Origin: a virus
Lineage: Duplodnaviria > Heunggongvirae > Uroviricota > Caudoviricetes
Virus record (IMG/VR): IMGVR_UViG_3300027808_000015
Direction: 5' to 3' (one strand)
Length of the DNA stretch: 64,000 nt
Shown here piece by piece: positions 14,475 through 62,047 of this stretch (position 1 is its first letter; each line of letters opens with the position of its first letter). The position numbers were made by a program, and so were the translations under genes. Below the pieces are notes generated by a model that ran no database searches, was not told where the DNA came from, and worked only from the letters and a program-made list of their open reading frames with translations.

Positions 14475-14514
14475 AAAAATATTTAGCTAGTTATATTAGC
14501 ACATAAATATTTCC

Positions 14515-15225
14515 ATGCCTATTATTCCCTTTGATCCAAGTTGGAAAAACATTGCTGTTGCTGTAAGCGGCGGTGCGGATAGTGCATTATTGGCCTACAT
14601 GGTTTGCCAAAAAGCTAAAGAACATGATGTTACTGTACACATTATCAACCATGTACGCTGTTGGAAAACAAAGCCGTGGCAACAACATGATGCGGACAAA
14701 GTATACGGTTGGCTGTTTCAAGAATTCTATCATATTACATTCAAGCGTCACATTAACTTTATAGCTCCGGAGCTAGAGTACGGAAGTGCAGGCCCAAACT
14801 TAACAGATGAGTATGGTAAGAAAGTGAGTGGGGACAACATACAATCGAGAGCATACGCAGAATACATTTGCCACAAACATGATGTTGATGCATTCTATAA
14901 TGGTGTTACACGTAATCCACGTTTGGCTATGTTTAACGGAATGCTAGAGAGAGATATCGAGCCTACTGAAGATAATACGCATTTAGAGTATATGATTCAC
15001 ATGGATATGGTAGTAAGTCATCCATTTAGGTTTGTGGACAAGGCCTGGATTATGTTACAATATAAAGAGTTAGATATTATGGACCTTTTTGATCTCACAC
15101 GCAGTTGTGAAGGAATAATTGAAGGTAATAATTACACAACATATACACCTGGACAATATGTGCCAGTATGTGGCAATTGCTTCTGGTGTAAAGAACGAGA
15201 GTGGGCAATTGAACAATCAAAGTAA
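14515..15225 (+). CDS. PP-loop ATP pyrophosphatase, QueC-like (7-cyano-7-deazaguanine synthase family-like)
   Basis: 236 aa. N-terminal IAVAVSGGADSALLA (SGGxDS PP-loop) and C-terminal CEG...VPVCGNCFWCKERE, which resembles the QueC zinc motif C...CGxCxxC. Identification to family level only. Confidence 0.5.
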   Translation: MPIIPFDPSWKNIAVAVSGGADSALLAYMVCQKAKEHDVTVHIINHVRCWKTKPWQQHDADKVYGWLFQEFYHITFKRHINFIAPELEYGSAGPNLTDEYGKKVSGDNIQSRAYAEYICHKHDVDAFYNGVTRNPRLAMFNGMLERDIEPTEDNTHLEYMIHMDMVVSHPFRFVDKAWIMLQYKELDIMDLFDLTRSCEGIIEGNNYTTYTPGQYVPVCGNCFWCKEREWAIEQSK

Positions 15226-16462
15226 AACATTCTGTATGCACCCTTTTACAGGGCTGGCAACTAGAGAAGACGGAGCCGTTAAAGTCTGTTGTCGTAGTTT
15301 GCCTGTTGGCAACATTAAATGCCAGAGCTTAGAAGAGATTTGGAATAATGATACTATGCGTAAGGTACGTTTCCAAGTACTTAATAACGAACGGCCTGAT
15401 GTTTGTAAACCCTGTTTCGATTTAGAAGATCAAGGTGTTGAAAGTTTACGTCAACGTCACATTAACGGAATTATACCTGAAGCACGTATTAACTTGTATC
15501 CTAACGCACTATTACAAGAAATATTGCCGTTTGAATTTCCTACAATAGAAATTAAACTCAACAATCTATGTAACTTAAAGTGTCGCATGTGCAATCCGTT
15601 AGACAGTACAAATTGGAAAGACTGGGATAAAGTAGAACCGTTTTATAAAAAAGAAAACAACTACCTTGTAGGTACAATTAGAGAACTGGTAGACACTCCG
15701 GGAAAATACATTGGAACATTCGATGATAGTGATAACTGGTGGACTAGTTTTGAAAAGTTACTGCCACACTTTAGACGTGTGGAGTTTGCCGGTGGCGAAC
15801 CTTTAATGGATCCACAGCATTATCGAATACTTGATATGCTCAAGCCTTATGGTAAGAACATTGAAATTAAGTACGCCACTAACGGCACAACACTAGGTAT
15901 CAACAAAGGAAGAACTATACATGACTACTGGCCTCATTTTAGAAGCGTTGCTGTTAACGTCAGCATGGACGGCATTCATGATGTTTACAATTACATACGT
16001 GGCAACGGTGATTTTAATCAAGTTGAAGAAAACATCAAAGAAATAAAAAAGATACCAAACGTAAGCCGTGTAGTAGGTGCATTCACAGCACAAGCCGGCA
16101 ATGTACTGCAAGCCGCAGAGTGCATTGATTATTTTATTAACAAGATGGACATTATATTTTATAGCCATCGTGTTAGCTATCCTAACTGTTTGTCAGCACA
16201 GGTGTTGCCGCAAGAATTAAAAGAGATAGCAATACAACGACTACAAGAAGTTAAACTACGGGTAGATACATGGGATGCAGTTAAAAAGAATGTGCTGTTG
16301 GGTAAAGTCACACACCAACAGATACAAGACAACATTAACTACTTACAAGCAACAGATCAAAATAACTTATGGCAGGACTTTTTAGATTTTAACTTGGCAT
16401 TGGACTCTACCCGCAATCAAAGTTTGTTATCTGTAATGCCGGAGTTTAAAAAATATGCGTAG
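15119..16462 (+). CDS. radical SAM enzyme, subfamily with N-terminal Cys-rich domain
   Basis: 447 aa. LNNLCNLKCRMCNP (CxxxCxxC). The N-terminal SKTFCMHPFTGLATREDGAVKVCCRS is paralogous to the N-termini of the ORFs at 19390 and 40033. The track start overlaps the upstream gene by about 100 nt; the true start may be an internal ATG near 15158. Confidence 0.65.
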   Translation: MKVIITQHIHLDNMCQYVAIASGVKNESGQLNNQSKTFCMHPFTGLATREDGAVKVCCRSLPVGNIKCQSLEEIWNNDTMRKVRFQVLNNERPDVCKPCFDLEDQGVESLRQRHINGIIPEARINLYPNALLQEILPFEFPTIEIKLNNLCNLKCRMCNPLDSTNWKDWDKVEPFYKKENNYLVGTIRELVDTPGKYIGTFDDSDNWWTSFEKLLPHFRRVEFAGGEPLMDPQHYRILDMLKPYGKNIEIKYATNGTTLGINKGRTIHDYWPHFRSVAVNVSMDGIHDVYNYIRGNGDFNQVEENIKEIKKIPNVSRVVGAFTAQAGNVLQAAECIDYFINKMDIIFYSHRVSYPNCLSAQVLPQELKEIAIQRLQEVKLRVDTWDAVKKNVLLGKVTHQQIQDNINYLQATDQNNLWQDFLDFNLALDSTRNQSLLSVMPEFKKYA

Positions 16463-17354
16463 TGTTGTAGGCCGTTGGCCCCATCAAAATAGCATTAAGG
16501 TTGAGTGGAATCTTGGCAAGCGTTGTAACTACGATTGTAGCTATTGCCCTGCGTCAATACATGACAACACAAGCCCGCACACTGATATAAAAATACTTAA
16601 AGCAACGGTAGATAGACTTGTGTCTCTAAGTAAGCCCGTGCGTCTTAGTTTCACGGGCGGCGAACCGTGCGTACATCCTAAGTTTCTAGAACTAGTCAAG
16701 TATTGTAAACACGTTGGTATTACATGGGTCAGCGTAACAACTAATGGCACACTGCCGTACCAATTTTATTCAGCACTGGAAGCAGATCAAATTGTGTTTA
16801 GTATACACTTAGAGTTTGACTGGAAGCGTGTTTTCAACACAGTGGAAAGTATTGTTAATTCAACAAACAAAAAAGTCATAGCACAGATTATGGCACATCA
16901 CGATCATATGGATGCTGTGGTACAATTACGTGCTAAGTGTTTGTTAGCACACATTCCCAATACAGTTAGACGCATACGCTGGACAGAAGGTGATCACGAT
17001 TTGTTTGACGACATGCGTTACAATCTAAATGATTTAGAATTATTAAAAGAAATGGAATCCACTGTAGAGGCAAACACAGTAATTGACGGCGTACAACTTA
17101 TTCATGCTAACGACATTATTAAATTAAGTTTAAACAAATATAAAACTTGGTCATGCTGGGCAGGTATAGAAAGCCTAATGATAAATTGGGACGGAGATGT
17201 ACACAGAGCGACTTGTAGAGTCGGTGGTAGTCTTGGCAACATATATGAAGGCAACTTCGTTGCTCCTAGCGAACCCGTAACTTGTGACCGTAATTTCTGT
17301 ACCTGCGCGGCTGATATCCCATTGACAAAATATGATCCAAACTACCGCAATTAA
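16455..17354 (+). CDS. radical SAM enzyme
   Basis: 299 aa. WNLGKRCNYDCSYCPAS, with C-terminal cysteines (TCRVGG, CDRNFCTCAAD). Confidence 0.7.
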   Translation: MRSVVGRWPHQNSIKVEWNLGKRCNYDCSYCPASIHDNTSPHTDIKILKATVDRLVSLSKPVRLSFTGGEPCVHPKFLELVKYCKHVGITWVSVTTNGTLPYQFYSALEADQIVFSIHLEFDWKRVFNTVESIVNSTNKKVIAQIMAHHDHMDAVVQLRAKCLLAHIPNTVRRIRWTEGDHDLFDDMRYNLNDLELLKEMESTVEANTVIDGVQLIHANDIIKLSLNKYKTWSCWAGIESLMINWDGDVHRATCRVGGSLGNIYEGNFVAPSEPVTCDRNFCTCAADIPLTKYDPNYRN

Positions 17355-18432
17355 ATTAAAATCGCCCGAGCCGTTTATGGTCACATGGGATATTCTACGA
17401 AGATGCAATTTGGATTGCTCTTACTGTGAAAGTACACGTCACGATATTATTAGTCCGCTGCCAACATTAGAAGATCTTACTAATACTTTTAGATTCATAC
17501 ACAAGTATGTAAAGATTTATAATAGCAAACGTGTTAGCTCTAGTAAAACTAATATAGATTTTACCGGTGGTGAACCAACAATCAACAACAATTTTTGGCC
17601 GCTGTTAGATCTTATTGCTAACACAAACGAGTTTCGACTTAGTCTCACAACTAACGGAACTTGGGGCACTAATTTTACAGAAAAGATTTTAAAAAACTTT
17701 GCCCATGCAACTATTAGTTGGCATGCTGAAGCTGAACAACATCTTAAAGATAGAACTATAACAAATATTTTATTCTTACATAATGCAGGTATGAGTGTAC
17801 AGGCTAACATTATGCTTCACTGTGATTACTTTGAAGAAGCGAAGAAAATATGTGAACTACTAAAAAGTCAGGGTGTTAAAGTTAATCCTGTTCCAGTTGG
17901 GGATGGTAGTATTGTACGTAAAGGATGGTTTATAGATAGCGACGGAACTAACAGACGAACAAGTCACGAATATACAGAAGAACAACAAGACTGGTTTTAC
18001 AATTGGATGGGACAACCTCGTAAAGCAACTACCACTACAGAAGGTACAAATGTAGGCAGAGCGTGTTGTGGTGGAAGGTGTACAGAAGGGTTAGTTAACA
18101 ACAAATGGCAAGAAGTTAAATTAGTAGACAATTGGTTCAAAGATTGGTATTGTACTGTTAACTGGTACTTCCTACATGTTGACCAAAAATCAGGAGATGT
18201 GTTTCATCATCAAACTTGCCAAGCAACTCATACTGGTCGCGGCCCAATCGGAAATCTACGCGATTCGTCTGCAATACTTAATCAAGTACACGACATGTTA
18301 TCTAAACCAGTAAGTCCTATTGTATGCCCTAATCAAAGATGCGGCTGCGGAATGTGTGTACCCAAAGCAAAAGGATTAGATGACTTTAAACAGTTGTGGA
18401 AAGAGACTACAATACTTAAACTAGTTGAATAG
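17332..18432 (+). CDS. radical SAM enzyme with C-terminal Cys cluster
   Basis: 366 aa. ILRRCNLDCSYCEST, with a C-terminal RACCGGRCTEG ... CPNQRCGCGMCVP. Confidence 0.7.
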   Translation: MIQTTAIKLKSPEPFMVTWDILRRCNLDCSYCESTRHDIISPLPTLEDLTNTFRFIHKYVKIYNSKRVSSSKTNIDFTGGEPTINNNFWPLLDLIANTNEFRLSLTTNGTWGTNFTEKILKNFAHATISWHAEAEQHLKDRTITNILFLHNAGMSVQANIMLHCDYFEEAKKICELLKSQGVKVNPVPVGDGSIVRKGWFIDSDGTNRRTSHEYTEEQQDWFYNWMGQPRKATTTTEGTNVGRACCGGRCTEGLVNNKWQEVKLVDNWFKDWYCTVNWYFLHVDQKSGDVFHHQTCQATHTGRGPIGNLRDSSAILNQVHDMLSKPVSPIVCPNQRCGCGMCVPKAKGLDDFKQLWKETTILKLVE

Positions 18433-19393
18433 GTATAATCCGTTTGTCTATAGTTGTTTCACCTGCACATACGCATAATTCTTTGCCGCACTTTACTGGT
18501 GCAATTACTGGCGTAAACTTTTTGACAAACTCAGTATCATATATACTATACTTCATTAAAGTATTATAAACGGGCTGTTGGCAAGTTCCTCTAATAGTAC
18601 CATCTTGAAATATTTCAAAATAGTCAACTCCTAGATTACAACTCCAACCTTTAAATCTGTTTTTATCATTTAACGCAAACCAGTTTTCTTCAACAAGTTT
18701 TTTTTCGTTATCTTCTATTACCCATACTTCGTTATGCTCATGATTAGGTAACCTATTCCACCAATCCATATTAGGCCAACGTTTAATTGGTTCTAAGAAA
18801 TATTCTTTTTCTGCGTCCGTATATCTTACTTCACCATTAAAATGAACAACTTTAGAAATAACTGGCCATGCGTTGTTGCTAGTATTTAATTTGTCTACTA
18901 TAGATTGGCAACCTTTAAAGTTTGACGGGTCCATTAAAACATTGCCAACCACTTTAGTATTTCTATCGTAAATCAAATCCCCTACTGCTTTAATATGATC
19001 AACTTTACAAAACTCGTGATGTACTGATATCTCTATGCTATCAAAATATTCTATGTTACGAGTCCACCAATTAACAGATCTACTGCCGTTTGTAGAAATA
19101 CGAATAACAGTATTATGATGTTCTTTTAGATGTTTGCATAGTATAGGCAAATCTTTCCATATAGTAGGTTCTCCACCTAATATATAAAATTCAAACTTAG
19201 TTTTGCCTTGTTGTTTGTATGCATTTATTAAATGATCTAAATTCTTAATCACAAGGTTAACATCTGGCCAAGGAAAGTCGCCTTCGTTGCTTCCTGGAAA
19301 ACAATAGGTACATTTATAATTACACAAATTTCCTATCATGTACTGTATGTACAATGTTTCAGGAGTTCTAGAATTAATAACTTGGGTTATCAT
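18416..19393 (-). CDS. radical SAM enzyme
   Basis: 325 aa. MIGNLCNYKCTYCFPG, with C-terminal GTCQQ...KCGKELCVCAG. Confidence 0.7.
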   Translation of the reverse strand: MITQVINSRTPETLYIQYMIGNLCNYKCTYCFPGSNEGDFPWPDVNLVIKNLDHLINAYKQQGKTKFEFYILGGEPTIWKDLPILCKHLKEHHNTVIRISTNGSRSVNWWTRNIEYFDSIEISVHHEFCKVDHIKAVGDLIYDRNTKVVGNVLMDPSNFKGCQSIVDKLNTSNNAWPVISKVVHFNGEVRYTDAEKEYFLEPIKRWPNMDWWNRLPNHEHNEVWVIEDNEKKLVEENWFALNDKNRFKGWSCNLGVDYFEIFQDGTIRGTCQQPVYNTLMKYSIYDTEFVKKFTPVIAPVKCGKELCVCAGETTIDKRIIPIQLV

Positions 19394-20778
19394 ATTAAAT
19401 GCGCTAGTTCCGGAAATGTAGATTTAAAATCTGTTCCACGTATCGCTTCTAATTTTTCAATGTATTCTTTAAATGCAGGCAACTGCTCACTGTGATCTTC
19501 AGAGTCCATAAAGTTTAGTACTGCTTGCCAACGCTTCCAACCGTAAGGATTTTGTTTCCAAAAATCTTCGTCTTGCCTGTAGTTTGCATGTAACCAGTTA
19601 GCAAGGTCTGTAAAACTCTTACGAACTTCTTCTTTGTCTGCTTCAGGCAATAACTTAATGCTTAGGTATGTGGGTATATACAACAGATGCATATTAATAA
19701 TTCCACCACCTGCTTGTATGCCGCCTACTGTATTTTCAAGATTTACTTTTTTAAAGTTCTGTGTAATCTTCCACTTGGCAAAATCTGCTAGGTGTTTGAT
19801 GTTTAATAGCTGTATTGCAGTAGCAATACTAACTTGTATGTTGTCAGGTGTGTTATCTAGCTTGTGAAGATTACGTTCGATAGTAGCCCAATCACTAGGA
19901 TAGCGTATATAGTAATTACGGTCACTGACAGCGTCAATGCTAAAACCCACTTTGACCTTTTTAAATTTTTTCCATAGTTCGATAATTTCGTCATCTACTA
20001 GTAGTCCATTTGTATTGTACCGTACAAGGATCTTGTCTGCGTATCCCTGTCTAATAATTTCCTCCAGGAACCATTTATGCTCACGAATCATCAAAGGTTC
20101 ACCACCAGCAAAATAAACTTGCTTTAGGTTAGGAATCTGTGCGTACATCTCTTTCCAGAAGTCTGGATTTTCATGCCACTTGTTGTTGAACTCTTTTCGA
20201 TTCCACACTAACTGATCTTTAAGTAACTTGTGTTCAAATAGAGGATATATCTTTTTATGGTCGCCTACCCACTGACTACTGTCGTGCGGACTACACATAA
20301 CACATTTAAGATTACAGGTGTGCCCTAAGCGCAAATCCAAGTAAACCAGTTTCTCAGGTACTGTACCGTCTTCCTCAGTTTGCTTGATAAGCTCTTCAAT
20401 GTCAATTCCATCTTCCATCCAAGAACCTGTTTCCCAAATACGCTTGCTGGCAACACCTCGAGATTCTTCAGCAATACACTTACTACAACTAGCAGGTATC
20501 TTTCCTTCCAGCATGGTCAAGCGTACATCTTTCATGTACTCGTTGTTCCAAGCACTCATAGGAGTTTCAAGTCCAAAGTTAGCAGGTACACCCTTTTCAT
20601 TTTTAACTAGTCCGGCATCATATACACCGTCTTTTGCACCACTGGCATTTGCACTACAGCACAGACGCATGTCGCCATTTGGGCGGGTAGCAAAGTGTAT
20701 CCATGGTAGTACGCAGAACGTCTTGCTTCCCGACACTACTTCAATTTTATCTTGCCACTGTTTAATCTTGTTTTCCAT
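19390..20778 (-). CDS. radical SAM enzyme, subfamily with N-terminal Cys-rich domain
   Basis: 462 aa. GHTCNLKCVMCSPH. N-terminal SKTFCVLPWIHFATRPNGDMRLCCS and a C-terminal FKSTFPELAHLI, both paralogous to the ORFs at 15119 and 40033. Confidence 0.7.
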   Translation of the reverse strand: MENKIKQWQDKIEVVSGSKTFCVLPWIHFATRPNGDMRLCCSANASGAKDGVYDAGLVKNEKGVPANFGLETPMSAWNNEYMKDVRLTMLEGKIPASCSKCIAEESRGVASKRIWETGSWMEDGIDIEELIKQTEEDGTVPEKLVYLDLRLGHTCNLKCVMCSPHDSSQWVGDHKKIYPLFEHKLLKDQLVWNRKEFNNKWHENPDFWKEMYAQIPNLKQVYFAGGEPLMIREHKWFLEEIIRQGYADKILVRYNTNGLLVDDEIIELWKKFKKVKVGFSIDAVSDRNYYIRYPSDWATIERNLHKLDNTPDNIQVSIATAIQLLNIKHLADFAKWKITQNFKKVNLENTVGGIQAGGGIINMHLLYIPTYLSIKLLPEADKEEVRKSFTDLANWLHANYRQDEDFWKQNPYGWKRWQAVLNFMDSEDHSEQLPAFKEYIEKLEAIRGTDFKSTFPELAHLI

Positions 20779-20785
20779 ATTTCTC

Positions 20786-21751
20786 TCAATTAAATTGTTC
20801 GTGAAATCTATCTACTTCGCCGCATTGTTTTGCACATTCTTTTAGTGGATCACATGCCCAAGTATTTTCAATTTTAGTAAACATATTCTGTTTGAACAAT
20901 TCTGCTAATGTGTGTTTATGTAGGTCTAATCTAGTTCCTATCTTATCCATGTAGTCTATGCGGTTAGGATTGTTAGGAGATTGCCATTCATTGTCTAACC
21001 AACAACATGGACTTACTATGCCAGTTGCACTAACATATAGGCTTTTTTCTTTTTGTACTTTACAACTTATAGTTTTAACTTCTTTGTTAACAAGTATCTG
21101 TTTACTTCTATCTGTAGGATATAGTATATGTATAGTCTGTCCTTCTTTGTTTAAAACATTTAATTGTTCATCTCGAAATCTAGCAGTATTTTTTGATACA
21201 AACTGTTTAAAGCCAAGTTCTACACTTAGTTGTTTACAGTCGTTGACTTGATGTTTGTTATGTTCAAATATTAACATGTCCCATGTAGCGTTACCGCCGG
21301 CTTGTATAAAATTACAAGCGTTATCTATAATTTTGTCAAAGTGTGTGCCTATACGATATAAGCTATGGGTATCTTCTAATCCATCAATCCCAAATCGAAC
21401 ATGTACCCCTAACCCAGCAATACTTTTCCAAAATGATTGGCTTTTTGCAGAACCGTTTGTATTCATACTTAGGCTGATTGTAGGATTGATCTCACGCAGG
21501 TATTCAAATATTTTTAAAGTATCTTTAGCAACTATTGGATCACCTAAGTTACCGCACATAAACAATCTATCTAACTGTTGGATAAACCCTGCTGAGAACC
21601 AGGTTTTAAATTGTTCAATAGTAATTTCTGTAACTGTCATAAACGGATTGTCAATACCACCTTGTATATTGCGAGCACACATAGGACAACTTGCCTGACA
21701 GCGACTAGTTACTTCTAAGTGTACTGTTTTAATATCTGCTAAGTTATACAT
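20786..21751 (-). CDS. radical SAM enzyme
   Basis: 321 aa. EVTSRCQASCPMCARN (CxxxCxxC), with additional cysteines (SPCCW, CDPLKECAKQC). Confidence 0.65.
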   Translation of the reverse strand: MYNLADIKTVHLEVTSRCQASCPMCARNIQGGIDNPFMTVTEITIEQFKTWFSAGFIQQLDRLFMCGNLGDPIVAKDTLKIFEYLREINPTISLSMNTNGSAKSQSFWKSIAGLGVHVRFGIDGLEDTHSLYRIGTHFDKIIDNACNFIQAGGNATWDMLIFEHNKHQVNDCKQLSVELGFKQFVSKNTARFRDEQLNVLNKEGQTIHILYPTDRSKQILVNKEVKTISCKVQKEKSLYVSATGIVSPCCWLDNEWQSPNNPNRIDYMDKIGTRLDLHKHTLAELFKQNMFTKIENTWACDPLKECAKQCGEVDRFHEQFN

Positions 21752-22340
21752 TAGGTGAACCTATTAACATGTACCTAGTATACAAAGGTAGTTCCAACTC
21801 TCCGGCCCAAATTACATTGATGCCGCATTGTTGTTTAAATTCTTCCAAACTGTTAGAGATCCTAACATGCTCTTCTATATTGTAATTATTGCTTTGTAGT
21901 ACTAAAAGACTGTTATGTGACATGCCACTTAACCATATGTCATATTGGTCTTGAGTTATATGTTCACAACTAGTGTTAATAACTACATCTGCATCACTGC
22001 GAATAGCGCACATATCTGCTGTAACTGCTCGAAATTTGCCTACTATTTCTTCGATCTTGTTCATGTTAACAGCAATAGGCTCGCAGGCAGGATCAATATC
22101 AATGCTACGGATGTTGATAATTGGAACATCACTTTGAAATAGCATACTGGCTAGTACACCAACCCATCCGCCGTGAATGTCAATACTAACAAACTTTTTT
22201 ACATGTGCTCTAAGATTAACTATCAACCATTCTTTACTTTTAAGTTGACCTGACCAAAAGGCATCCATGGTCCGCATAGGATCTGGACTTTGTCTAATAG
22301 CCTGCATCCAATAGTGTAAGTGTTCTGTATCTAGTAACAT
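21744..22340 (-). CDS. hypothetical protein (possible class I SAM-dependent methyltransferase)
   Basis: 198 aa. The glycine-rich VSIDIHGGWVGVLAS followed by an acidic residue (IRSIDIDPA) is loosely Rossmann MTase-like. Weak. Confidence 0.3.
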   Translation of the reverse strand: MLLDTEHLHYWMQAIRQSPDPMRTMDAFWSGQLKSKEWLIVNLRAHVKKFVSIDIHGGWVGVLASMLFQSDVPIINIRSIDIDPACEPIAVNMNKIEEIVGKFRAVTADMCAIRSDADVVINTSCEHITQDQYDIWLSGMSHNSLLVLQSNNYNIEEHVRISNSLEEFKQQCGINVIWAGELELPLYTRYMLIGSPNV

Positions 22341-23098
22341 TATAAATTTATCATATTTGCAATTCGTTGAGCTGTTATTGCATGTGTCTTTGGGCCGTGG
22401 TGCATTATGTCTCGAGCTTCATCAACATTCTCTAGATAACCACAATCTAGCAATTTAGCTGTTTCAGTAAAAAAACTAAATTCACAATAAGCAGTATCTT
22501 CCCACAGGGTTTTACTTATCTTGCTAGCAAACAATGCATGTACCTTGCTGTGAGAATCATCTTTAATCCAGTAGTGCCAATAATTATCCTCTTCGTCTTG
22601 ATTCCAATTGCCATGTGATATTATATTTCTTTTCTCATAGTACGCTATTCTACTGTAGTCTGGCCACAACTGCACCACTGCTAGTGGTGTAGGATAATTA
22701 CTTCTAAGAATAGATGAATTATGAAAATTAAACATCATTGAGGATCCACCAACACCCATGTTAATGACTGGTTTGTTAATAAGTCTAGATAGTTGAGCAG
22801 GCGTAGTATCTGCATCGTCAATCCCTACACCAAATGCATTAGAGCATCCAAACACTACTACAGAGTTTGCCCAGTCAATTTTTTTAAATTCGTCTGAACG
22901 GTAACCGTCTTTATTAAATGTATAACGGACTTGGTTATTCCTGTAGTACCAGTCTGCAGGTTTTGTTTTTAAATTTTGTTCGTATAGTTCTTTGGTGTCA
23001 GTGCCTGACCAATTTTTACCAACTAGAGCATTTACTGGAAGAAATTTGTTTTTCTTTACTAAACCGGGTATAGTTGACAATATTAAATCGTTATGCAT
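22340..23098 (-). CDS. GDSL/SGNH-like hydrolase paralog (putative)
   Basis: 252 aa. VVFGCSNAFGVG and MGVGGSSMMF, paralogous to the ORF at 5259..6011. Confidence 0.3.
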   Translation of the reverse strand: MHNDLILSTIPGLVKKNKFLPVNALVGKNWSGTDTKELYEQNLKTKPADWYYRNNQVRYTFNKDGYRSDEFKKIDWANSVVVFGCSNAFGVGIDDADTTPAQLSRLINKPVINMGVGGSSMMFNFHNSSILRSNYPTPLAVVQLWPDYSRIAYYEKRNIISHGNWNQDEEDNYWHYWIKDDSHSKVHALFASKISKTLWEDTAYCEFSFFTETAKLLDCGYLENVDEARDIMHHGPKTHAITAQRIANMINL

Positions 23099-24048
23099 TT
23101 TGGTATCTTACTGTCAGCACTACTAACACAGCTAGGAGTGATACAGCGAGTAGGTTCTTTAAATAATTCGAAACTGTCTATCGTGCCTAACGGAGCTTCA
23201 TGACAACTGTATGCACGTTTGACTTCGTTACCTCGTATTATAACACTTTGATATCCTGCATTGCAAGTCCAATCTTTAAACTTGTTAAAACCAAATGCAT
23301 TAAATCTTTCTGCCTGATCCAAGTAGTAATCCTTATTACCGTCACTGAGTCTAATTTGGTAAACTTCTTCACCAAATGCCCGTTGTGGGAAACCTTCACG
23401 CATTAACTTGATCATGTCTTCAGTATAACCATCTACAACCGCACTCGCTGTAGGATCACTTTGCGGCTTGAGTGTTACGTTAATTCCACGTTTGTGGAAT
23501 CGTTCCATACGAGCATACAATTCGTCAAACTTTTCAGGCACCATTACTTGATTAATTGTAACGTGTACAAGTTCATATTGTAACTGTAAACACTTGTCGC
23601 CAAACTCTTGCTCTTTGGCAAACTCATCGTGAAAGCTGGCTGTAATACTACGGCGTTGTAATAACGCGGTATTGGCGCACCAAGTGTTCCACCATTTGCT
23701 ACCGGGACTCAAATTGGTAGTCATATGGATACTTTGGTAAGGGCTTTCAGTTTCGTCCAAATGTTTAACAAGATCATTCAACTGTTTGTATGCTGTAGGC
23801 TCACCACCGCTGAAGCTCCAGTGGAATTGATTGAAGCCATTAGCTCGTGCTTGCCGCTTGATCTCGTCCACGGTGGCTTTATACACGTCAAGTGGTTGAT
23901 GATCAACTTTATCACTGCGGGCATAGGGCCAACAGTAACTACAATTGTAATTACAAAACCTACCCAAAATCCAACTAGTAGAGAATAATGGACGGTCTAA
24001 CATAGTCTGTTGTCCAAAACGTATTATTTGTTCAAATGGAATCTGCAT
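23083..24048 (-). CDS. radical SAM enzyme
   Basis: 321 aa. ILGRFCNYNCSYCWPY (CxxxCxxC), with C-terminal CITPSCVSSADSKIPKC. Confidence 0.7.
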   Translation of the reverse strand: MQIPFEQIIRFGQQTMLDRPLFSTSWILGRFCNYNCSYCWPYARSDKVDHQPLDVYKATVDEIKRQARANGFNQFHWSFSGGEPTAYKQLNDLVKHLDETESPYQSIHMTTNLSPGSKWWNTWCANTALLQRRSITASFHDEFAKEQEFGDKCLQLQYELVHVTINQVMVPEKFDELYARMERFHKRGINVTLKPQSDPTASAVVDGYTEDMIKLMREGFPQRAFGEEVYQIRLSDGNKDYYLDQAERFNAFGFNKFKDWTCNAGYQSVIIRGNEVKRAYSCHEAPLGTIDSFELFKEPTRCITPSCVSSADSKIPKCITI

Positions 24049-24091: not shown

Positions 24092-24120
24092 TTGACTTTA
24101 ACTTGTTCTGACTATATAAT
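24092..24120 (+). promoter_or_regulatory. sigma-70-type consensus promoter driving the tRNA-like RNA
   Basis: TTGACT, 17-nt spacer, TATAAT. The -10 element ends 6 nt before the first base of the acceptor stem. Confidence 0.6.
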
Positions 24121-24126
24121 TATGAC

Positions 24127-24237
24127 GTAGACGTGAGTGGAACTTGGTATACCTCCTCCTAGTAGCTTCGGCGAACGGAGGGAACTGGGCTAGCCCATTG
24201 GGTGCCTTTGTAGGTTCGAATCCTACCGTCTACACCA
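24127..24237 (+). tRNA. tRNA-like RNA, 111 nt, non-canonical
   Basis: The 5' GTAGACG pairs perfectly with CGTCTAC immediately 3' of a canonical T-arm (GTAGG-TTCGAAT-CCTAC). A discriminator A and CCA follow. The interior is about 35 nt longer than a class I tRNA. It contains CCTCC...GGAGG enclosing a GC-UUCG-GC hairpin, plus the palindromes GGTATACC and GGGCTAGCCC. No canonical anticodon arm could be folded by eye. Confidence 0.5.
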
Positions 24238-24263
24238 TTTTATTAACACACACAGAGGCACGT

Positions 24264-24647
24264 ATGAAAAAGTTAGATTTAGTAAAGATAGTAGGCACAA
24301 TCCTAGTCGCTACACTTTGCGTTCTTGGCAGTAAATATATCAGAAACAATGATAACCCTAGTGTTGAGATTAATCAAGGTGGTTTTAATTATAGAGATCC
24401 AGACTCAACTTTTGATGCTAGTAAACTTAACACTAACCAAACTCAAATTACTTGGAGAGTGGTACCCGATGTCCAAAAGGCTTGTGAAGCTGAAAGTCGT
24501 AATTTGGGTAATAAAGGATTCGGTTATATGGTACAGGCATGTAGCTTTTGGGCGCAGACTACTTGCACTATCATAACTGGCAAGAACGCTACCATGCATC
24601 AGTTAGGTCACGAAACACTGCATTGTTTTAAAGGAAACTTTCACTAA
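24264..24647 (+). CDS. membrane-anchored/secreted protein with C-terminal HExxH
   Basis: The start is likely the ATG at about 24264 (MKKLDLVKIVGTILVATLCVLG, an N-terminal hydrophobic anchor). The track start at 24144 would overlap the tRNA-like gene. The C-terminus is GHETLHCFKGNFH. Confidence 0.5.
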   Translation: MKKLDLVKIVGTILVATLCVLGSKYIRNNDNPSVEINQGGFNYRDPDSTFDASKLNTNQTQITWRVVPDVQKACEAESRNLGNKGFGYMVQACSFWAQTTCTIITGKNATMHQLGHETLHCFKGNFH

Positions 24648-25204
24648 TGAAAAAAGTAGCATCAAGCCCTGAACGCAATACCTTTCAAAAGGAAGGCGCA
24701 ATTAGGCGAGCAGAAGAAGCAGGCGAAGAACCCAATCAAGCATACATTGACATGTGGGAACAGATCAAGATCGATGATGCTAACAAGATTCACGATCCTG
24801 CTTGGCAAAAGAATAACATGGAATATGATTTGCGCTCAAGCAAAGAACTATGCGACAAAGTCAAAGCAAGTGACAATTATGCTCAAAACTTGTATGCGGC
24901 AATGTGTAACATGACTTGGCAAAGCAGAGAGTTTTGGCAAGAGATGAAGGGCGAAGTATGGTCAGCTAGTTGGCGTCACAGTGGTGGCATTGTTGCTGAC
25001 ATGCAGGAAAAGGGTGACTACATTGATTGGTACTGTAGTGGTATTGGCAATGAAGAATCCGGCTACGGGTTAGATCACTGTGAGCCTACTACAGACACAG
25101 TTGGACGTAACTATGTGCCGGAAGGTGTTGTAACTGAAGAAATAGAATTAGACTTAAACCGCTTAGGTTGGCGGCCTGTTCCTTGGAATGATAACGAAGA
25201 TTAA
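24647..25204 (+). CDS. hypothetical protein
   Basis: 185-aa ORF, ATGA-coupled. Confidence 0.55.
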   Translation: MKKVASSPERNTFQKEGAIRRAEEAGEEPNQAYIDMWEQIKIDDANKIHDPAWQKNNMEYDLRSSKELCDKVKASDNYAQNLYAAMCNMTWQSREFWQEMKGEVWSASWRHSGGIVADMQEKGDYIDWYCSGIGNEESGYGLDHCEPTTDTVGRNYVPEGVVTEEIELDLNRLGWRPVPWNDNED

Positions 25205-25216
25205 AGTAAATATATT

Positions 25217-25393
25217 ATGACAAAAACAACTTACAAAGCAGAAGAACTATTTGAAGACATTGAGGGTGATCCTGATAATGTCATTTTTAAAATTCCACCT
25301 GAAATTTGCGAAGCACAGGGCTGGGTAGAAGGCGACACAATTAACATTAAAGTAGAAGATGGTGCTATGGTACTGTCCAAGGTAAATGGCTAA
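25217..25393 (+). CDS. AbrB/MazE-like swapped-hairpin small protein (putative)
   Basis: 58 aa (MTKTTYKAEELFEDIEGDPDNVIFKIPPEICEAQGWVEGDTINIKVEDGAMVLSKVNG). It resembles MazE/AbrB (...GDxVxIxVEDGxLVL...). Its stop overlaps the infA start. Not in the ORF track because it is shorter than 60 aa. Confidence 0.35.
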   Translation: MTKTTYKAEELFEDIEGDPDNVIFKIPPEICEAQGWVEGDTINIKVEDGAMVLSKVNG

Positions 25394-25604
25394 AGACGAT
25401 ATTATTGAATTAGTAGGAACAGTTGAAGAAGTATTACCCGGAAACATGTTCAGGGTTAAGGTAGATCAAGCACCAAAACCAATTTTGTGCTACATGGGTG
25501 GTAAACTAAAACAACACAAAATTAGGATAATTTTGGGTGACAAGGTTAAATTGGAAATTAGTCCGTACGACCTTACCAAGGGCAGAGTAACTTATAGGTT
25601 GTAA
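25386..25604 (+). CDS. infA: translation initiation factor IF-1
   Basis: The 72-aa sequence MAKDDIIELVGTVEEVLPGNMFRVKVDQAPKPILCYMGGKLKQHKIRIILGDKVKLEISPYDLTKGRVTYRL aligns along its whole length with bacterial IF-1 ([30 protein letters not shown]...[35 protein letters not shown]). Confidence 0.9.
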   Translation: MAKDDIIELVGTVEEVLPGNMFRVKVDQAPKPILCYMGGKLKQHKIRIILGDKVKLEISPYDLTKGRVTYRL

Positions 25605-25606
25605 CT

Positions 25607-26281
25607 ATGAATTCAATAATGGAAACTATATGTTTAATTTGTACTCGGGTTAGACACAAGACTAAACAAGATACTAGTTTTCCAAAGTTATTAGTAGAGT
25701 TGCGGCGTGGATTCAAAAGAGCAGGATTAGATTTAAAAATAAGGTCGCAAACAAAGAAGTTTCTTGACACAAAAGAATTTTATGTAAACGCATATTATGA
25801 TCCCGAAGATGATCAAAATAGAGAAACTCCTATAGAAGTAATCATATATCATAATTTTGATAAAGATATTGTTTGGACTAATAAGCAGATAACAGAATTA
25901 CTTGTTCAAGTTTTTGACGCTACAGTACACGAGTACAAACATCAACGCCAAAGTCGCAAACGTGACTATACAGAGTTTTGGAAACGAGTTGACGCTGAAC
26001 AACAATTCCACGAGTACTTACAAGACCCAGATGAGCTAGATGCTTATGCACTTAGTATCGCAATTGAGCTATGTCGGACAGTTGGTAAATTTCGAGCATT
26101 ACGTTATATGCCCAAATTTACAACATTGGCTAGACTTAAAGTACAAGAACAGTATGTTAGTCCAAATTTAAACGCATACGTTAGCCATTTTGAAAAACCC
26201 ATTAGTCCCTTATTAAGACGACTTGCCAAAAAGGTCTATGTGCGCCTGATGAAAGTTGACACAGACCATATTTTCATGTAA
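25607..26281 (+). CDS. hypothetical protein
   Basis: 224-aa ORF. Confidence 0.55.
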   Translation: MNSIMETICLICTRVRHKTKQDTSFPKLLVELRRGFKRAGLDLKIRSQTKKFLDTKEFYVNAYYDPEDDQNRETPIEVIIYHNFDKDIVWTNKQITELLVQVFDATVHEYKHQRQSRKRDYTEFWKRVDAEQQFHEYLQDPDELDAYALSIAIELCRTVGKFRALRYMPKFTTLARLKVQEQYVSPNLNAYVSHFEKPISPLLRRLAKKVYVRLMKVDTDHIFM

Positions 26282-32442: not shown

Positions 32443-33243
32443 ATGAAACGTATTTTGACTCTTTCCGTTCTTGCCGCGGCTGTGCTGGCAACAGGTTGTA
32501 CTCGTATCGAAACTGGTGAAGTTGGTGTGCGAGTTGGTTTTGATAAACAGGTGCAAAGTGGTGAACTACTTCCCGGTTCTTTTAATCAAAGTATTATTGG
32601 TGAAGTACTCACATTCCCTATCAAGGATGTGAACGTGGTACTGGAGAATATGACCCCAGTGGCCAAAGACAACTCAACCATGAAAGACTTTGATGCTGTG
32701 GTTGTCTACAACATCAACCCTGGCCAGGTATCTGAACTGTATGCAACCAAGAACAGGAGCTTCCATGCTGAGTTCAAAGGTGATACCTATGTGATGTACA
32801 ACTACATTGTGCAGAATGCTCGTAACGCTATCTACAAGGCCGCTCGCAAGTACGAGGCCCTGGACATGGCAGATGCTCGTAGCGACATGGAAACCTTTAT
32901 CAAGGAAGAAATTGTTCGCAACCTTGCCGAAGAAAAGTTGGACGGCAGTATCAGTATTAGTCAAGTGCTGATCCGTAATATTGTACCAGCTGACTCAGTG
33001 GTAGCAAGTGCTAACGAATTGGTCAAGGCCAAGAACGAGTTCAAGACTGAAGAAGTCAAAGTGGCCACTGCTCGCAAGCGTAATGAATCAATGCAGGCCA
33101 ACCCAATGGCAATTCCCTTGTTGCGAGCTGAAGCTGAAGCTGAAGCCATGCGCAAGTTGCCAGATGCTATTGCCAACTTCAAAGGTCAGACCTTGGTCAT
33201 CAACGGAGTAGTAACACCTACTGTACAAACTAACGCAAAATAA
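32443..33243 (+). CDS. SPFH/band-7 domain lipoprotein (HflK/C- or QmcA-like)
   Basis: 266 aa. MKRILTLSVLAAAVLATGC (lipobox), then RIETGEVGVRVGFDKQV...TFPIKDVNVVLENMTPVAKDNSTMKDFDAVVVYNI and a coiled-coil/Ala-Glu-rich tail (LLRAEAEAEAMRKL), typical of SPFH proteins. Confidence 0.5.
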   Translation: MKRILTLSVLAAAVLATGCTRIETGEVGVRVGFDKQVQSGELLPGSFNQSIIGEVLTFPIKDVNVVLENMTPVAKDNSTMKDFDAVVVYNINPGQVSELYATKNRSFHAEFKGDTYVMYNYIVQNARNAIYKAARKYEALDMADARSDMETFIKEEIVRNLAEEKLDGSISISQVLIRNIVPADSVVASANELVKAKNEFKTEEVKVATARKRNESMQANPMAIPLLRAEAEAEAMRKLPDAIANFKGQTLVINGVVTPTVQTNAK

Positions 33244-33253
33244 GGAGAAGATT

Positions 33254-33949: not shown

Positions 33950-33950
33950 A

Positions 33951-34091
33951 ATGGACGATCCACGCTGTTGCGGCTCTGGCGCTTGTATTATCAACGATGA
34001 AGGCGAGTGTTGGTGCGGACAGCGTTGGGACGGTACAAAGATGTGCTTTCCCGTTTTAGAAACTGAAAAGAAAGAGGACGATGATGTTTGA
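33951..34091 (+). CDS. small Cys-rich peptide
   Basis: 46 aa (MDDPRCCGSGACIINDEGECWCGQRWDGTKMCFPVLETEKKEDDDV) with 6 Cys. Starts 2 nt after the YccA stop. Not in the track. Confidence 0.4.
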   Translation: MDDPRCCGSGACIINDEGECWCGQRWDGTKMCFPVLETEKKEDDDV

Positions 34092-34335
34092 TTGGTTTAA
34101 AAAGAGAGAATATACTAACGTGATTAAATTTCCAGAACAGATAAAAGATCCGATACCGTATATTGAGCCTCCTAAGAAGGAACAAGAATATTACAGTATT
34201 GGAGTTACTAGCGAAAATCGCATAACTTTTAAAACTGGTATATCAACGCTAACTATGAATCGAGAAGGTGTTGAAAATTTGATTCAACAGTTAGCAGTGT
34301 TCCGTGATCAAATTAAAGAAGAACAAGATGTTTAG
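34081..34335 (+). CDS. hypothetical protein
   Basis: 84-aa ORF. Confidence 0.4.
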   Translation: MMFDWFKKREYTNVIKFPEQIKDPIPYIEPPKKEQEYYSIGVTSENRITFKTGISTLTMNREGVENLIQQLAVFRDQIKEEQDV

Positions 34336-34708: not shown

Positions 34709-34711
34709 ACA

Positions 34712-50227: not shown

Positions 50228-62046
<11,819 letters not shown>

Positions 62047-62047
<1 letters not shown>

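Follow-up and report, generated by a model that had tools for sequence, protein, structure and literature searches.

The tRNA-like RNA described here, 111 nt long, is encoded in a 64,000-nucleotide stretch of phage DNA (the window), and comparative evidence supports its assignment to a large, covarying, phage-only family of noncoding RNAs that is novel relative to Rfam and to the literature searched. The family occurs on more than 200 IMG/VR phage contigs and comprises 119 distinct sequences of 95–119 nt. The RNA has kept all of the nucleotides on which the tRNA elbow and core depend, together with A73-CCA, but a variable hairpin stands where the anticodon loop would be; it should thus be unable to read codons and is most likely a tRNA mimic. 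The favoured explanation, held tentatively at a probability of about 40%, is a stand-alone, non-decoding mimic derived from tRNA-Leu, which would most likely act in trans, occupying a host tRNA-binding factor as a decoy or competing ligand.

Architecture, promoter and conservation

The features of the locus are as follows (window coordinates).

23083–24048, minus strand: divergent radical-SAM gene bounding the intergenic region (Pfam Radical_SAM, E=3.3e-13)
24092–24097, plus strand: −35 hexamer TTGACT; TTGAC(A/T/C) lies 17 nt 5′ of the −10 hexamer in 116 of 119 distinct promoter-plus-RNA combinations
24115–24120, plus strand: −10 hexamer TATAAT, 17-nt spacer from the −35 hexamer, ending exactly 6 nt before G1
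24127–24237, plus strand: tRNA-like RNA, G1 to CCA, 111 nt (family covariance model R1)
24127–24133 and 24227–24233, plus strand: acceptor stem GTAGACG/CGTCTAC, 7 bp, perfectly paired
24134–24153, plus strand: D-like segment UGAGUGGAACUUGGUAUACC, with U8, A14-A15, G18G19 and U20-A20a; a degenerate D-arm
24154–24182, plus strand: hairpin in the anticodon position, with basal 6-bp stem UCCUCC/GGAGGG, internal loop UAGUA/GAAC and GC-UUCG-GC cap
24187–24207, plus strand: long variable arm GGGC-UA-GCCC-AUU-GGGU-GCCU, 4+4 bp, 2-nt 5′ bulge, triloop
24210–24226, plus strand: T-arm GUAGG-UUCGAAU-CCUAC, with U48 just before it (24209)
24227–24237, plus strand: acceptor 3′ strand CGUCUAC, A73 (24234) and encoded CCA (24235–24237)
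24238–24263, plus strand: U/A-rich trailer, the 5′ UTR of the next gene, with RBS AGAGG (24254–24258)
24264–24647, plus strand: first ORF of the operon, 127 aa, with a hydrophobic N-terminal segment and C-terminal HETLH
24647–25204, plus strand: p185, the most consistently linked protein gene, without a known domain
25386–25604, plus strand: phage IF-1 homolog in the same operon (Pfam eIF-1a, E=6.1e-20), downstream in 117 loci

The first-pass annotation had proposed a TTGACT–17 nt–TATAAT promoter ending 6 nt before G1 (24127), a 7-bp acceptor stem, a T-arm, a discriminator A and an encoded CCA, and all of these are present within the total of 111 nt. Its CCTCC…GGAGG stem around GC-UUCG-GC is also real (24154–24182), with covariation backing the basal 6 bp, and it was right to call the interior non-canonical, the anticodon loop being replaced by a hairpin and the D-arm being degenerate. 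Two palindromes that it had singled out do not hold as structural units. The first, GGTATACC, is part of the D-like segment, and in relatives it is no longer symmetrical (GGTAGACC, GGTAAACC). In GGGCTAGCCC, GGGC does not pair with GCCC; they pair instead with the downstream GCCT and GGGT, respectively, in a bulged 8-bp variable arm.

The single-sequence folding energy of the RNA is ordinary (z = −0.68), and the evidence for its structure is comparative. It comes from an RNA-anchored set of 169 copies (110 distinct) and from a second set of 50 members that were traced from the neighbouring protein; in addition, 80 protein-anchored loci were inspected. Model R1 has a single match in the 64-kb window, the RNA locus itself (122 bits, E=4.5e-32). 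In the modelled helices, 99.0% of cells are paired, as against 86% in shuffles and 35–49% when the helices are slid; double-sided changes occur at 19 of the 26 pairs in four helices, values that none of 500 shuffles reaches, and all top mutual-information pairs fall in modelled helices. The acceptor stem contributes double-sided changes at five of seven pairs (99.4% of cells paired, 18 different paired variants), the basal stem of the hairpin at four of six (its basal U·G and C-G are invariant), the variable arm at seven of eight, including the top mutual-information pairs of the alignment, and the fully (100%) paired T-arm at three of five. About 250 cells hold G·U, including the invariant U·G; on the opposite strand these would become A·C, and a function on that strand is thereby ruled out.

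The D-like segment is nearly invariant, even in sets that were not selected on it, which leaves little covariation, and at most two or three pairs can be drawn in it. Its only covarying pair is column 14:24, which resembles 13:22 (G·U 70, G·G 27, U-A 3, C-G 1). Other helices within the segment, and pairing between the segment and the spacer, were rejected as having no mutual-information support beyond that column.

Single nucleotides are conserved to the same degree. A73, A14-A15, G18G19, U20-A20a, U48, U54-U55-C56 and A58 are present in all 110 distinct members, and the protein-anchored members keep the D-like segment, U48, the T-loop and A73 in 49–50 of 50 cases. A73 is found in 110/110 and 50/50 members of the RNA-anchored and protein-anchored sets, and CCA in 108/110 and 49/50; two members end in CCG. 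Outside its basal stem, by contrast with this body, the hairpin exists in about 50 versions of 14–37 nt, AGUA…GAAC occurring in 36 of 110. The hairpins are often capped by a tetraloop, a 7-nt loop is absent from this position, and the shortest family members have a continuous 5–7-bp stem with a CUUG, UUCG or UUUG tetraloop.

These patterns make it scarcely credible that the RNA is a non-functional, decaying tRNA pseudogene or a leftover such as an attachment-site fragment. Its tRNA derivation, the lack of an anticodon and its absence from some related phages would suit such a remnant, but 119 distinct sequences show compensatory changes in four helices with 99% pairing, the replacement hairpins are well formed with stable tetraloop caps, a near-consensus promoter is kept at constant spacing, and the RNA core is invariant although the adjacent proteins are only 46–79% identical (median) to the window copies.

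A TAnnnT hexamer occupies positions −12 to −7 in 117 of 119 distinct family promoters and in 49 of the 50 members found via the neighbouring protein. The promoter-to-G1 spacing is constant in 117/119 cases, with a purine at +1 in 119/119 and a pyrimidine at −1 in 82/119, and this fixed spacing predicts a leaderless start; for the genuine tRNA-Met of contig L223 the promoter-to-tRNA distance is 10 nt, as against 6 nt in the family. The window holds eight TTGACW-N16-18-TATAMT promoters (0.25 expected), all rightward, and that of the RNA is the first of these consensus sigma-70 promoters, from which we infer that the RNA is probably made first in infection, behind the first early promoter.

In Rfam 15, no model matches the 64-kb window at its gathering score, and a low-stringency scan around the locus (E up to 10) returned sub-threshold matches only. 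When 185,579 genomes of bacteria and archaea were scanned with a D-region pattern, two chance matches came up, both without a T-arm; the family was found in none of these genomes. Literature searches for the sequence and for anticodon-less tRNA-like RNAs of phages returned nothing specific.

Decoding tRNAs and other tRNA-like RNAs

The first-pass annotation had left three options: a tRNA with a short insertion or intron, a tRNA-like decoy and a novel phage noncoding RNA. The last is borne out: the family is large, covaries, is confined to phages, corresponds to no Rfam family at threshold and is unmatched in the literature searched. The decoy fits the same evidence, as a conjecture about function, and the insertion or intron falls. 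The family shares with canonical tRNAs the 7-bp acceptor stem, the 5-bp T-stem with a UUCRANY loop, and the discriminator with CCA; in none of the family was there a 5-bp anticodon stem that closes a 7-nt loop containing U33, nor is any anticodon consistent across it. In the shortest members the hairpins are continuous helices with 4-nt loops, so that no excision could restore a 7-nt anticodon loop, and the insert is too short for a group I intron.

It is accordingly most improbable that the RNA is a decoding tRNA after all, with an unusual or expanded anticodon arm or a removed intron. ARAGORN calls some short members tRNA-Pro GGG or tRNA-Arg UCG, and the Rfam tRNA model (RF00005, cutoff 29) just reaches threshold on three of ten diverse members (29.8–31.2 bits). 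Yet the other seven fail, genuine tRNAs in the same loci score 50–65 bits with that model, the "UCG anticodon" is the UUCG tetraloop of a continuous helix, and the arm varies from 14 to 37 nt without a conserved loop. ARAGORN at default thresholds leaves the window copy uncalled in any mode, including the intron and tmRNA modes that had been suggested as a check, and its calls across the family scatter over 23 mutually inconsistent combinations of isotype, anticodon and intron. An ordinary tRNA with other boundaries did not emerge either; the best Rfam match, tRNA-Sec at 21.5 bits, has the same boundaries.

Two special classes were tried and rejected. A tRNA-Sec (RF01852) is defined here by an 8/5 or 9/4 acceptor/T-stem, a 6-bp D-stem, a UCA anticodon and at least 47 bits; the RNA has 7/5 geometry, no UCA loop and 21.5 bits against the threshold of 47. 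For tmRNA, there is no ARAGORN call, the tmRNA_permuted model gives 11 bits against 47, and 111 nt leaves no room for an ORF. The tRNA-like domain of tmRNA resembles the family in combining acceptor stem, T-arm and CCA, without an anticodon, for a non-decoding use. It differs in having the G3·U70 of alanine identity (6% in the family), pseudoknots, a tag ORF and a reduced D-loop, and in lacking a long variable arm.

The T4 species 1 RNA (rnaC) is another stable phage RNA with a textbook T-arm (CCGGGUUCGAAUCCCGG), paired ends and a non-tRNA body near tRNA genes. It differs from the family in its length of 139 nt, in lacking a recognisable D-loop, variable arm or encoded CCA, and in lying inside a tRNA cluster, whereas the family RNA stands at +1 of a promoter. 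The family model gives rnaC 15.5 bits, in the T-arm region only, and does not match rnaD, so homology is not indicated. To our knowledge, the function of the species 1 RNA, annotated as a "small, stable RNA", was never established.

Viral tRNA imitations that engage host tRNA enzymes without decoding are known from plant RNA viruses (tRNA-like structures, TLS) and from murine gammaherpesvirus 68 (TMERs). The former are 3′-terminal parts of RNA genomes with pseudoknotted acceptor arms and the latter are eukaryotic pol III transcripts linked to miRNAs; both are unlike the family, and neither is a promoter-proximal class II cloverleaf of a bacterial virus. The same design exists in man-made form: in the engineered "tRNA scaffold" for recombinant RNA expression, an arbitrary hairpin replaces the anticodon arm, reportedly with correct processing and high stability in bacteria. 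The shortest natural members carry no such "cargo", which indicates that the body, not the insert, must be the functional part.

Probable leucine tRNA ancestry and possible charging

The RNA most likely descends from a class II tRNA, with tRNA-Leu(UAA) as the source, as judged from sequence resemblance. The D-like segment resembles the D-arm of tRNA-Leu(UAA) on related contigs, TG-GTGGAATGGTA[T/G]ACAC, and the true tRNA that scores best with the family model is a tRNA-Leu in three independent places (34.3 bits on contig L104, 36–37 bits on L223 and L252, and 34.8 bits for the T4 tRNA-Leu); family members themselves score 87–124 bits. A blastn search with the RNA returned only generic 3′-end similarity to phage tRNA-Tyr, tRNA-Leu and others, which is uninformative on ancestry.

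Compared with the phage tRNA-Leu (the tRNA-Leu(UAA) of L104, L158, L223 and L252, and that of T4), the RNA has in common the 7/5 acceptor/T-arm geometry, A73-CCA, a long variable arm, the D-loop GGAA(Y)UGGUA(U/G)AC with the same U/G polymorphism, and a genomic slot shared with the real tRNAs of sister phages. It differs in lacking an anticodon loop, in a longer, bulged variable arm, in its predicted leaderless start, and in a degenerate D-stem, which is one nucleotide longer on the 5′ side and one shorter on the 3′ side. With the Rfam tRNA model, the family reaches at most 31 bits, as against 50–65 bits for true tRNAs.

The leucine identity set has been reviewed, with A73, not G73, as the discriminator (PMC9976931). 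The nucleotides required for A15-U48, G18G19, A20a, U8:A14, G18:U55, G19-C56 and U54:A58 are present and invariant in the family. The invariant nucleotides thus match the published set, the tertiary pairs themselves being predictions.

A dependence on charging is suggested by this match and is nonetheless unlikely. Under such a reading, host LeuRS, which does not read the anticodon, would aminoacylate the RNA and the charged form would matter, either as a non-ribosomal amino-acid donor (e.g., to L/F-transferase) or as a sink or ligand for LeuRS or EF-Tu. All 110 distinct members hold A73 and the leucine identity nucleotides, which fits charging equally well; CCA is encoded and conserved, the D-arm is Leu-like, tRNA-Leu is the best true-tRNA match to the model, and a phage ClpP in the same early region is suggestive, at most, of an N-degron link. 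However, the listed identity nucleotides are for the most part common to all tRNAs, the degenerate D-stem may disturb the hinge read by LeuRS, the two CCG-ending members fit poorly, and the window ORFs that were scanned yielded no aminoacyl-tRNA-dependent transferase. Position 3:70 also speaks against it: among 100 distinct sequences it is A-U in 80 (including the window copy), G-C in 14 and G·U in 6. Since G3·U70 is the alanine determinant, which a role tied to one amino acid should avoid, the G3·U70 members count against charging, and the switching among the three pairs indicates that amino-acid identity is not strictly selected.

Genomic setting and proposed function

The synteny of the locus is widely shared. 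The radical-SAM gene is upstream and divergent in 124 loci (at about 1 kb in 121 of these), the first ORF has a homolog in 118 loci (median identity 46%), and p185 lies downstream of the RNA on the same strand in 137 loci, within 500 nt in 128 of them; in some loci without the first ORF, p185 directly follows the RNA. Homologs of p185 fall in 5,249 metagenome clusters, all unnamed. Searches of Pfam, PHROG and PDB with p185 gave no match, and its AlphaFold model (mean pLDDT 48) is too poor for a fold search. The sole NCBI-linked homolog is on an uncultivated-virus contig with the same synteny.

The operon also contains a MazE-antitoxin-like gene, which is borderline (23.9 bits, below the 24.7 cutoff).

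Megablast with 3 kb of the locus found no close relative among deposited phages, and tblastn with p185 found no match among them. Identities of the other proteins are low: at most 35% for the ligase to cultured phages, 23% for the radical-SAM neighbour to Campylobacter phage CP21, and at most 54% for IF-1. No cultured relative that would point to a host was found.

The RNA is always followed, 11–40 nt further on and in the same orientation, by an RBS and ATG (the distance from CCA to ATG being mostly 21–30 nt), and in the window locus neither a terminator-like site nor a second promoter was found between the RNA and the ORF; a T-run of at least four follows CCA in 89 of 167 copies. Such an arrangement could suit a cis-acting leader, in which the tRNA-shaped structure would serve the downstream early mRNA, either as a base-paired, triphosphorylated 5′ cap blocking decay or as a processing signal setting the 5′ end of the mRNA. 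A leaderless start would place the 5′ end inside a helix, tRNA punctuation and the t-elements of plant mitochondria are models for processing signals, and the E. coli tufB operon, in which tRNAs are co-transcribed with mRNA, is a precedent for co-transcription. A cis role is nevertheless quite unlikely. A stabiliser or cleavage signal needs no invariant D-loop, U48, T-loop, A73 or CCA, and no conserved pairing was found between the RNA body and the downstream leader or RBS (0–3 nt in 75 of 118 loci).

The loci of sister phages bear on the same question. Six of the 80 protein-anchored loci lack the RNA and another six hold true tRNAs (tRNA-Met, tRNA-Leu(UAA) or tRNA-Arg), which are trans-acting, in the same slot; in some sister phages the promoter sits directly before p185. 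The operon thus does not need this element, and the RNA is not essential to the clade.

The absence of conserved pairing with the leader and the conservation of ACCA argue for action in trans, as the favoured mimic would require. In that model, host RNA polymerase would start at G1 and leave a 5′ triphosphate, so that no RNase P step would be needed, and ordinary cleavage and trimming of the trailer would free the 3′ CCA end from the polycistronic early transcript. Once folded into an L-shape, the RNA would be recognised by host proteins that bind tRNAs through the body and CCA end, yet it could not serve on the ribosome as a decoder. It may then act as a decoy or as a competitive, non-consumable ligand for a host tRNA-targeting factor. 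A defence nuclease or toxin directed at tRNA is the likeliest target; to such a factor, a body lacking the anticodon could bind without being open to the usual inactivation. Amino-acid charging would be possible and not essential to this role.

Such a role has precedent, in that defence systems cleave host tRNAs and phage tRNAs are proposed to act as supplement or decoy: the tRNA-Tyr of T5 or T6 acts against retron-Eco7 and Septu, and the T5 tRNA-Lys against PARIS (PMC13096335). Like the family RNA, these are early or abundant tRNA-shaped molecules; unlike it, they decode. The family RNA cannot replace a depleted tRNA and could therefore only bind or titrate. Against the decoy view, the known phage answers to such defences are tRNAs that function and retain their anticodon.

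A narrower version of the decoy model, possible but doubtful, is that the RNA is a dedicated counter-defence element, its leaderless tRNA-Leu body binding an immune nuclease or toxin and offering no anticodon loop to cut. Made almost as soon as infection begins, it would inhibit by competition and would not stand in for a tRNA, and the many hairpin versions would reflect an arms race at the nuclease or toxin interface; the hairpin variability could instead be a relaxed length constraint. If this version is true, the RNA would be the first non-decoding "tRNA decoy" described in phages.

Family members are a hazard for annotation, because ARAGORN and Rfam call some of them tRNA-Pro, tRNA-Arg, tRNA-Ser and others. 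The usual explanation of phage tRNAs is codon usage or, more recently, replacement of tRNAs destroyed by defence systems. Neither explains a family that keeps the tRNA body and discards the anticodon, and the tRNA shape itself appears to be selected for a non-decoding job, with a promoter placed so that the mature 5′ end would be made directly. With about 50 different hairpins borne by an unchanging body, and with real tRNAs taking that slot in sister phages, the family amounts to a natural experiment. It parallels in nature the engineered tRNA scaffold and may shed light on the T4 species 1 and 2 RNAs.

The RNA and its relatives

The promoter, the tRNA-like ends and the T-arm described by the first-pass annotation are all present, in the following arrangement.

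24092-24097, + strand: TTGACT -35 element, followed by a 17-nt spacer
24115-24120, + strand: TATAAT -10 element, followed by 6 nt
24127-24237, + strand: 111-nt RNA beginning at G1 (24127), with a perfect 7-bp acceptor stem (GTAGACG/CGTCTAC)
24134-24153, + strand: D-like segment
24154-24182, + strand: replacement hairpin in the anticodon position
24187-24207, + strand: variable arm
24210-24226, + strand: T-arm of textbook form (GTAGG-TTCGAAT-CCTAC)
24234-24237, + strand: A73-CCA 3′ end

ARAGORN reports neither tRNA nor tmRNA in the whole 64-kb window, intron mode likewise gives none, and Rfam 15 finds nothing there at gathering score. A permissive local covariance-model scan for an ordinary tRNA with other boundaries gave tRNA-Sec as its best match, at 21.5 bits (threshold 47) and with the same boundaries. 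The single-sequence folding energy is ordinary (z = -0.68), and the case for structure must therefore rest on comparison with relatives.

The 3′ 25-mer of the RNA occurs in 99 IMG/VR viral contigs, with identical architecture in 99/99, and a D-region-anchored scan found at least 119 stretches, adding members with other acceptor and T-stems. Combined, these two RNA-anchored scans yield at least 169 full-length copies and at least 110 distinct sequences, 95-119 nt in length. Without reference to the RNA, the neighbouring protein p185 led to a third set; 68 of its 80 loci carry the RNA at 90-124 bits, as 50 distinct sequences, 9 of them new. Each RNA-anchored scan fixed part of the sequence, and the invariance of each such part was checked in a set not selecting for it. 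The family covariance model has a single match in the window (122 bits, E = 4.5e-32) and finds one copy per locus in related loci. A scan of 185,579 bacterial and archaeal species (one genome each) with the D-region signature produced just two chance matches, neither with a T-arm, and no close relative was found among cultured phages. The 5,249 homolog clusters of p185 in public metagenomes are all unnamed, which indicates that the clade is abundant but uncultured.

Across the family, ARAGORN labels only 36 of the 169 copies (about a fifth), under seven different identities, and its intron-mode calls are scattered over 23 combinations; the 'UCG anticodon' among these calls corresponds to the UUCG tetraloop. 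Short members are labelled tRNA-Pro(GGG), tRNA-Arg(UCG), Ser, Gly, Gln, Leu or '???' (annotation-hazard copies in loci L006, L013, L048, L130, L133, L148, L016, L067 and L014), and the Rfam tRNA model scores some members barely above threshold (29.8-31.2 bits vs 29). Spurious tRNAs may therefore stand in public annotations of these phages.

Conserved tRNA body and variable anticodon position

Pairs were counted on 100 distinct members aligned to the family model. Standard pairs fill 99.0% of cells, compared with 86% for column-shuffled alignments and 35-49% with the partners displaced by 1-3 columns. Both sides have changed in 19 of 26 pairs, 0 of 500 shuffles match the observed values, and the pairs of highest mutual information fall exclusively in the four supported helices.

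Helices of the family and their double changes
Acceptor stem: 7 pairs; double changes in 5/7
Basal stem in the anticodon position: 6 bp; double changes in 4/6
Variable arm: 4+4 bp with a 2-nt 5′ bulge and a triloop; double changes in 7/8
T-stem: 5 pairs; double changes in 3/5

G.U occupies about 250 cells, one U.G being invariant; these cells would become A.C on the opposite strand, which identifies the + strand as functional. In 53 of 110 members the length differs by something other than a multiple of three, and in 78 of 110 stop codons interrupt all three forward frames, so the RNA is non-coding. Two proposed palindromes are not structural units: GGTATACC, part of the D-like segment, is no longer symmetrical in relatives, and GGGC and GCCC each pair with a downstream partner, building the variable arm.

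The first-pass annotation found no canonical anticodon arm, and the anticodon loop is indeed absent. Its position is taken by an arm of 14-37 nt in about 50 versions, ranging from a 5-bp stem with a CUUG cap through 7-bp stems with UUCG or UUUG caps to two-tier hairpins. That the RNA is a decoding tRNA is exceedingly improbable, given the missing loop and model scores that are sub-threshold or marginal. All 110 distinct members carry U8, A14-A15, G18G19, U20-A20a, U48, U54-U55-C56, A58 and A73, and 108 encode CCA; the same features are kept in 49-50 of the 50 distinct sequences of the p185-anchored set, which places no constraint on the RNA sequence. Flanking proteins from the same loci have a median identity of only 46-79% to the window's copies. 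Beside such conservation, the chance that the RNA is a tRNA pseudogene is put at next to nothing. The tRNA body is strongly selected and the anticodon arm is free, in a non-decoding RNA most likely derived from tRNA-Leu.

An AGUA...GAAC internal loop, which we take to resemble the bulged-G (sarcin-ricin/loop E) consensus AGUA/GAA, occurs in the replacement hairpin of 36 of 110 members, including the window (24160-24176, UAGUA/GAAC). Hairpins of other members have recurrent internal loops (AAU/AAC or AAA/GGC) or an apical loop UGUAACRAAC. An invariant ACCUCC stands where the D-like segment meets the basal stem (window 24149-24182; columns 25-30 and 64-70 of the family alignment A3), and its partner strand is the Shine-Dalgarno-like GGAGGG in about 70% of members. 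We take ACCUCC to resemble the anti-Shine-Dalgarno sequence at the 16S rRNA 3′ end; both strands being base-paired, the likeness may be a coincidence.

Ancestry, the tRNA slot and the early transcript

The D-like segment reads UGA-GUGGAAYnUGGUA[U/G]AC-C. Its closest D-arm is that of the genuine tRNA-Leu(UAA) of related contigs (UG-GUGGAAUGGUA[U/G]ACAC), with the U/G polymorphism common to both; the D-like segment has one nucleotide extra on the 5′ side and one fewer in the 3′ strand. The D-arms of tRNA-Ser and tRNA-Tyr are unlike it. In three independent places the family model scores tRNA-Leu higher than any other true tRNA: 34.3 bits in locus L104, 36-37 bits in L223 and L252, and 34.8 bits among T4 tRNAs (vs 26.3 for tRNA-Ser). 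The RNA most likely descends from a class II tRNA-Leu.

Six related loci in two lineages (p185 67-75% identical; L223, L225-L227, L252 and L253, about 1990-2245 in each locus) hold tRNA-Met(CAU), tRNA-Leu(UAA) and tRNA-Arg(UCU) in place of the RNA, between the equivalent early promoter and the operon; the RNA therefore occupies a 'tRNA slot'. Six other loci are without any RNA, and in two of these (L244, L246) the promoter stands immediately upstream of p185. Within the clade the RNA is both widespread and dispensable. In another locus (L145, 12423-12516, - strand), ARAGORN calls an unusual 94-nt 'tRNA-Ile(UAU)' with a long variable arm; tRNA-Ile is normally class I, without a long arm.

The window contains eight TTGACW-N16-18-TATAMT promoters (0.25 expected by chance), all near-consensus sigma-70 promoters directed rightward on the + strand at 24.1-44.6 kb (24092-44642). 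They mark an early region beginning at the RNA, whose promoter is the first of the eight and the only one with an RNA behind it. Among 119 distinct promoter-RNA combinations of the family, a TAnnnT hexamer lies exactly at -12 to -7 in 117 and TTGAC(A/T/C) lies 17 nt upstream of the -10 in 116; -1 is mostly a pyrimidine and +1 is a purine without exception. From this geometry and known sigma-70 start-site choice, we infer that transcription starts at G1. The RNA would then carry a triphosphate on a 5′ end that is mature from the start, and RNase P would not be needed. The genuine tRNA-Met of L223 starts 10 nt past the -10 box and, unlike the family RNA, would need 5′ processing.

Between CCA and the next ORF, which starts 21-30 nt past CCA in most loci, there is no terminator and no second promoter, which makes the RNA the leading segment of a polycistronic early transcript. 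The trailer is U/A-rich and resembles a bacterial tRNA trailer; the conserved CCA end implies that the RNA would be released by cleavage and trimming. No conserved pairing links the RNA body to the downstream leader in family loci. A cis-acting role as mRNA leader is quite unlikely, as it leaves the invariant elbow, hinge and ACCA unexplained, and sister phages do without the RNA, having ordinary tRNAs or nothing in the slot.

More than 100 loci share one fixed order: a divergent radical-SAM gene, the promoter, the RNA, a small hydrophobic protein, p185, a MazE/AbrB-like protein, an IF-1 homolog and p224.

24264-24647, + strand: first small ORF, 127 aa, with a C-terminal GHETLH
24647-25204, + strand: p185
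25217-25393, + strand: MazE-antitoxin/AbrB-like protein, 58 aa, borderline (E=3.9e-5, 23.9 bits vs 24.7 cutoff)
25386-25604, + strand: IF-1 homolog (Pfam eIF-1a, E=6e-20), sharing the early operon of the RNA
25607-26281, + strand: p224, with HEYKH

The IF-1 homolog is found downstream in 117 related loci (62-100% identical), and among deposited phages its best matches (megaphages, Lak phages) do not exceed 54% identity. The MazE/AbrB-like protein, conserved in 96 loci and flagged also in an NCBI-linked relative, could be an orphan antitoxin-type counter-defence gene. The first small ORF and p224 have no Pfam match; their HExxH motifs are typical of zinc metalloproteases. In 124 loci the radical-SAM gene adjoining the RNA is retained in divergent orientation. 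Radical-SAM genes are unusually concentrated, at least 10 having Pfam or PHROG support (window 10122-24048, 15119-16462, 40033-41400), and adjoin a QueC-like PP-loop protein (14515-15225) and an Asp/Asn-hydroxylase-like protein (13806-14474); a QueD-like PTPS lies farther off (44716-45231). Downstream, the early region encodes WYL-like, 2OG-oxygenase, DNA ligase and QueD-like proteins and, among host-physiology genes (32443-35828 and 47781-48347, +), SPFH/Band 7, Bax-inhibitor-1/YccA-like (E=1.6e-55), ClpP protease (E=9e-61) and Fe/Mn superoxide dismutase (SOD) proteins. The window ORFs that were scanned revealed no tRNA-handling enzyme. A single 3,939-aa ORF (50228-62047, +) presumably encodes a giant virion or tail protein.

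Possible function and known tRNA mimics

The favoured reading, to which we give a probability of about 0.4, is a mimic acting in trans by occupying a host factor that binds tRNA. Without an anticodon loop, a tRNA body would be a binder not inactivated in the usual way, and a mimic made first in infection, beside an antitoxin-like gene, would suit such a role. Recent work on tRNA-cleaving defences, with phage tRNAs as supplement or decoy, supplies a concrete setting (PMC13096335). This reading is favoured because position 3:70 drifts and because a cis role fails to account for the invariant features.

A variant of the mimic that depends on charging is unlikely. The invariant nucleotides match those of the leucine identity set: E. 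coli tRNA-Leu needs A15-U48, G18G19, A20a and D/T-loop contacts, A73 is crucial and G73 blocks LeuRS, the anticodon and long variable arm are not crucial, and versions without both arms are still charged (review PMC9976931). Judged by this match, leucylation of the RNA is plausible. Against specific charging stands the drift at 3:70, which is A-U in 80, G-C in 14 and G.U in 6 of 100 distinct members. G3.U70 is the alanine determinant, and one would not expect to find it in a molecule that depends on a single specific amino acid. The remaining probability belongs to some reading not yet thought of.

As to known classes, tRNA-Sec is ruled out by the 7/5 geometry of the RNA and the low score, and tmRNA by the lack of an ORF, of a G3.U70 rule and of detection; the RNA also fails the defining tests of an intron-containing tRNA. 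It would work like other tRNA mimics, such as the tRNA-like domain of tmRNA, plant-virus TLSs and gammaherpesvirus TMERs, and its architecture makes it nature's equivalent of the engineered tRNA scaffold. Among phage RNAs, T4 species 1 RNA (rnaC; NC_000866 70908-71046, minus strand) comes closest as a precedent: it is a stable RNA with a very stable fold (z = -4.6) and a perfect 3′ T-arm (CCGGGUUCGAAUCCCGG) on a non-tRNA body. It has no detectable homology to the family (15.5 bits). T4 rnaD has no such T-arm and no significant stability. Neither the sequence nor the concept was found in the full-text literature searched, which leaves most subscription-journal papers outside, and an earlier description is possible.

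The structure and ancestry of the RNA are well established, and it is strongly supported that the gene is real and belongs among the tRNA mimics. That a phage keeps a complete, apparently chargeable tRNA-Leu body but drops the anticodon is contrary to specialist expectation, and the family makes non-decoding roles of phage tRNAs directly testable.
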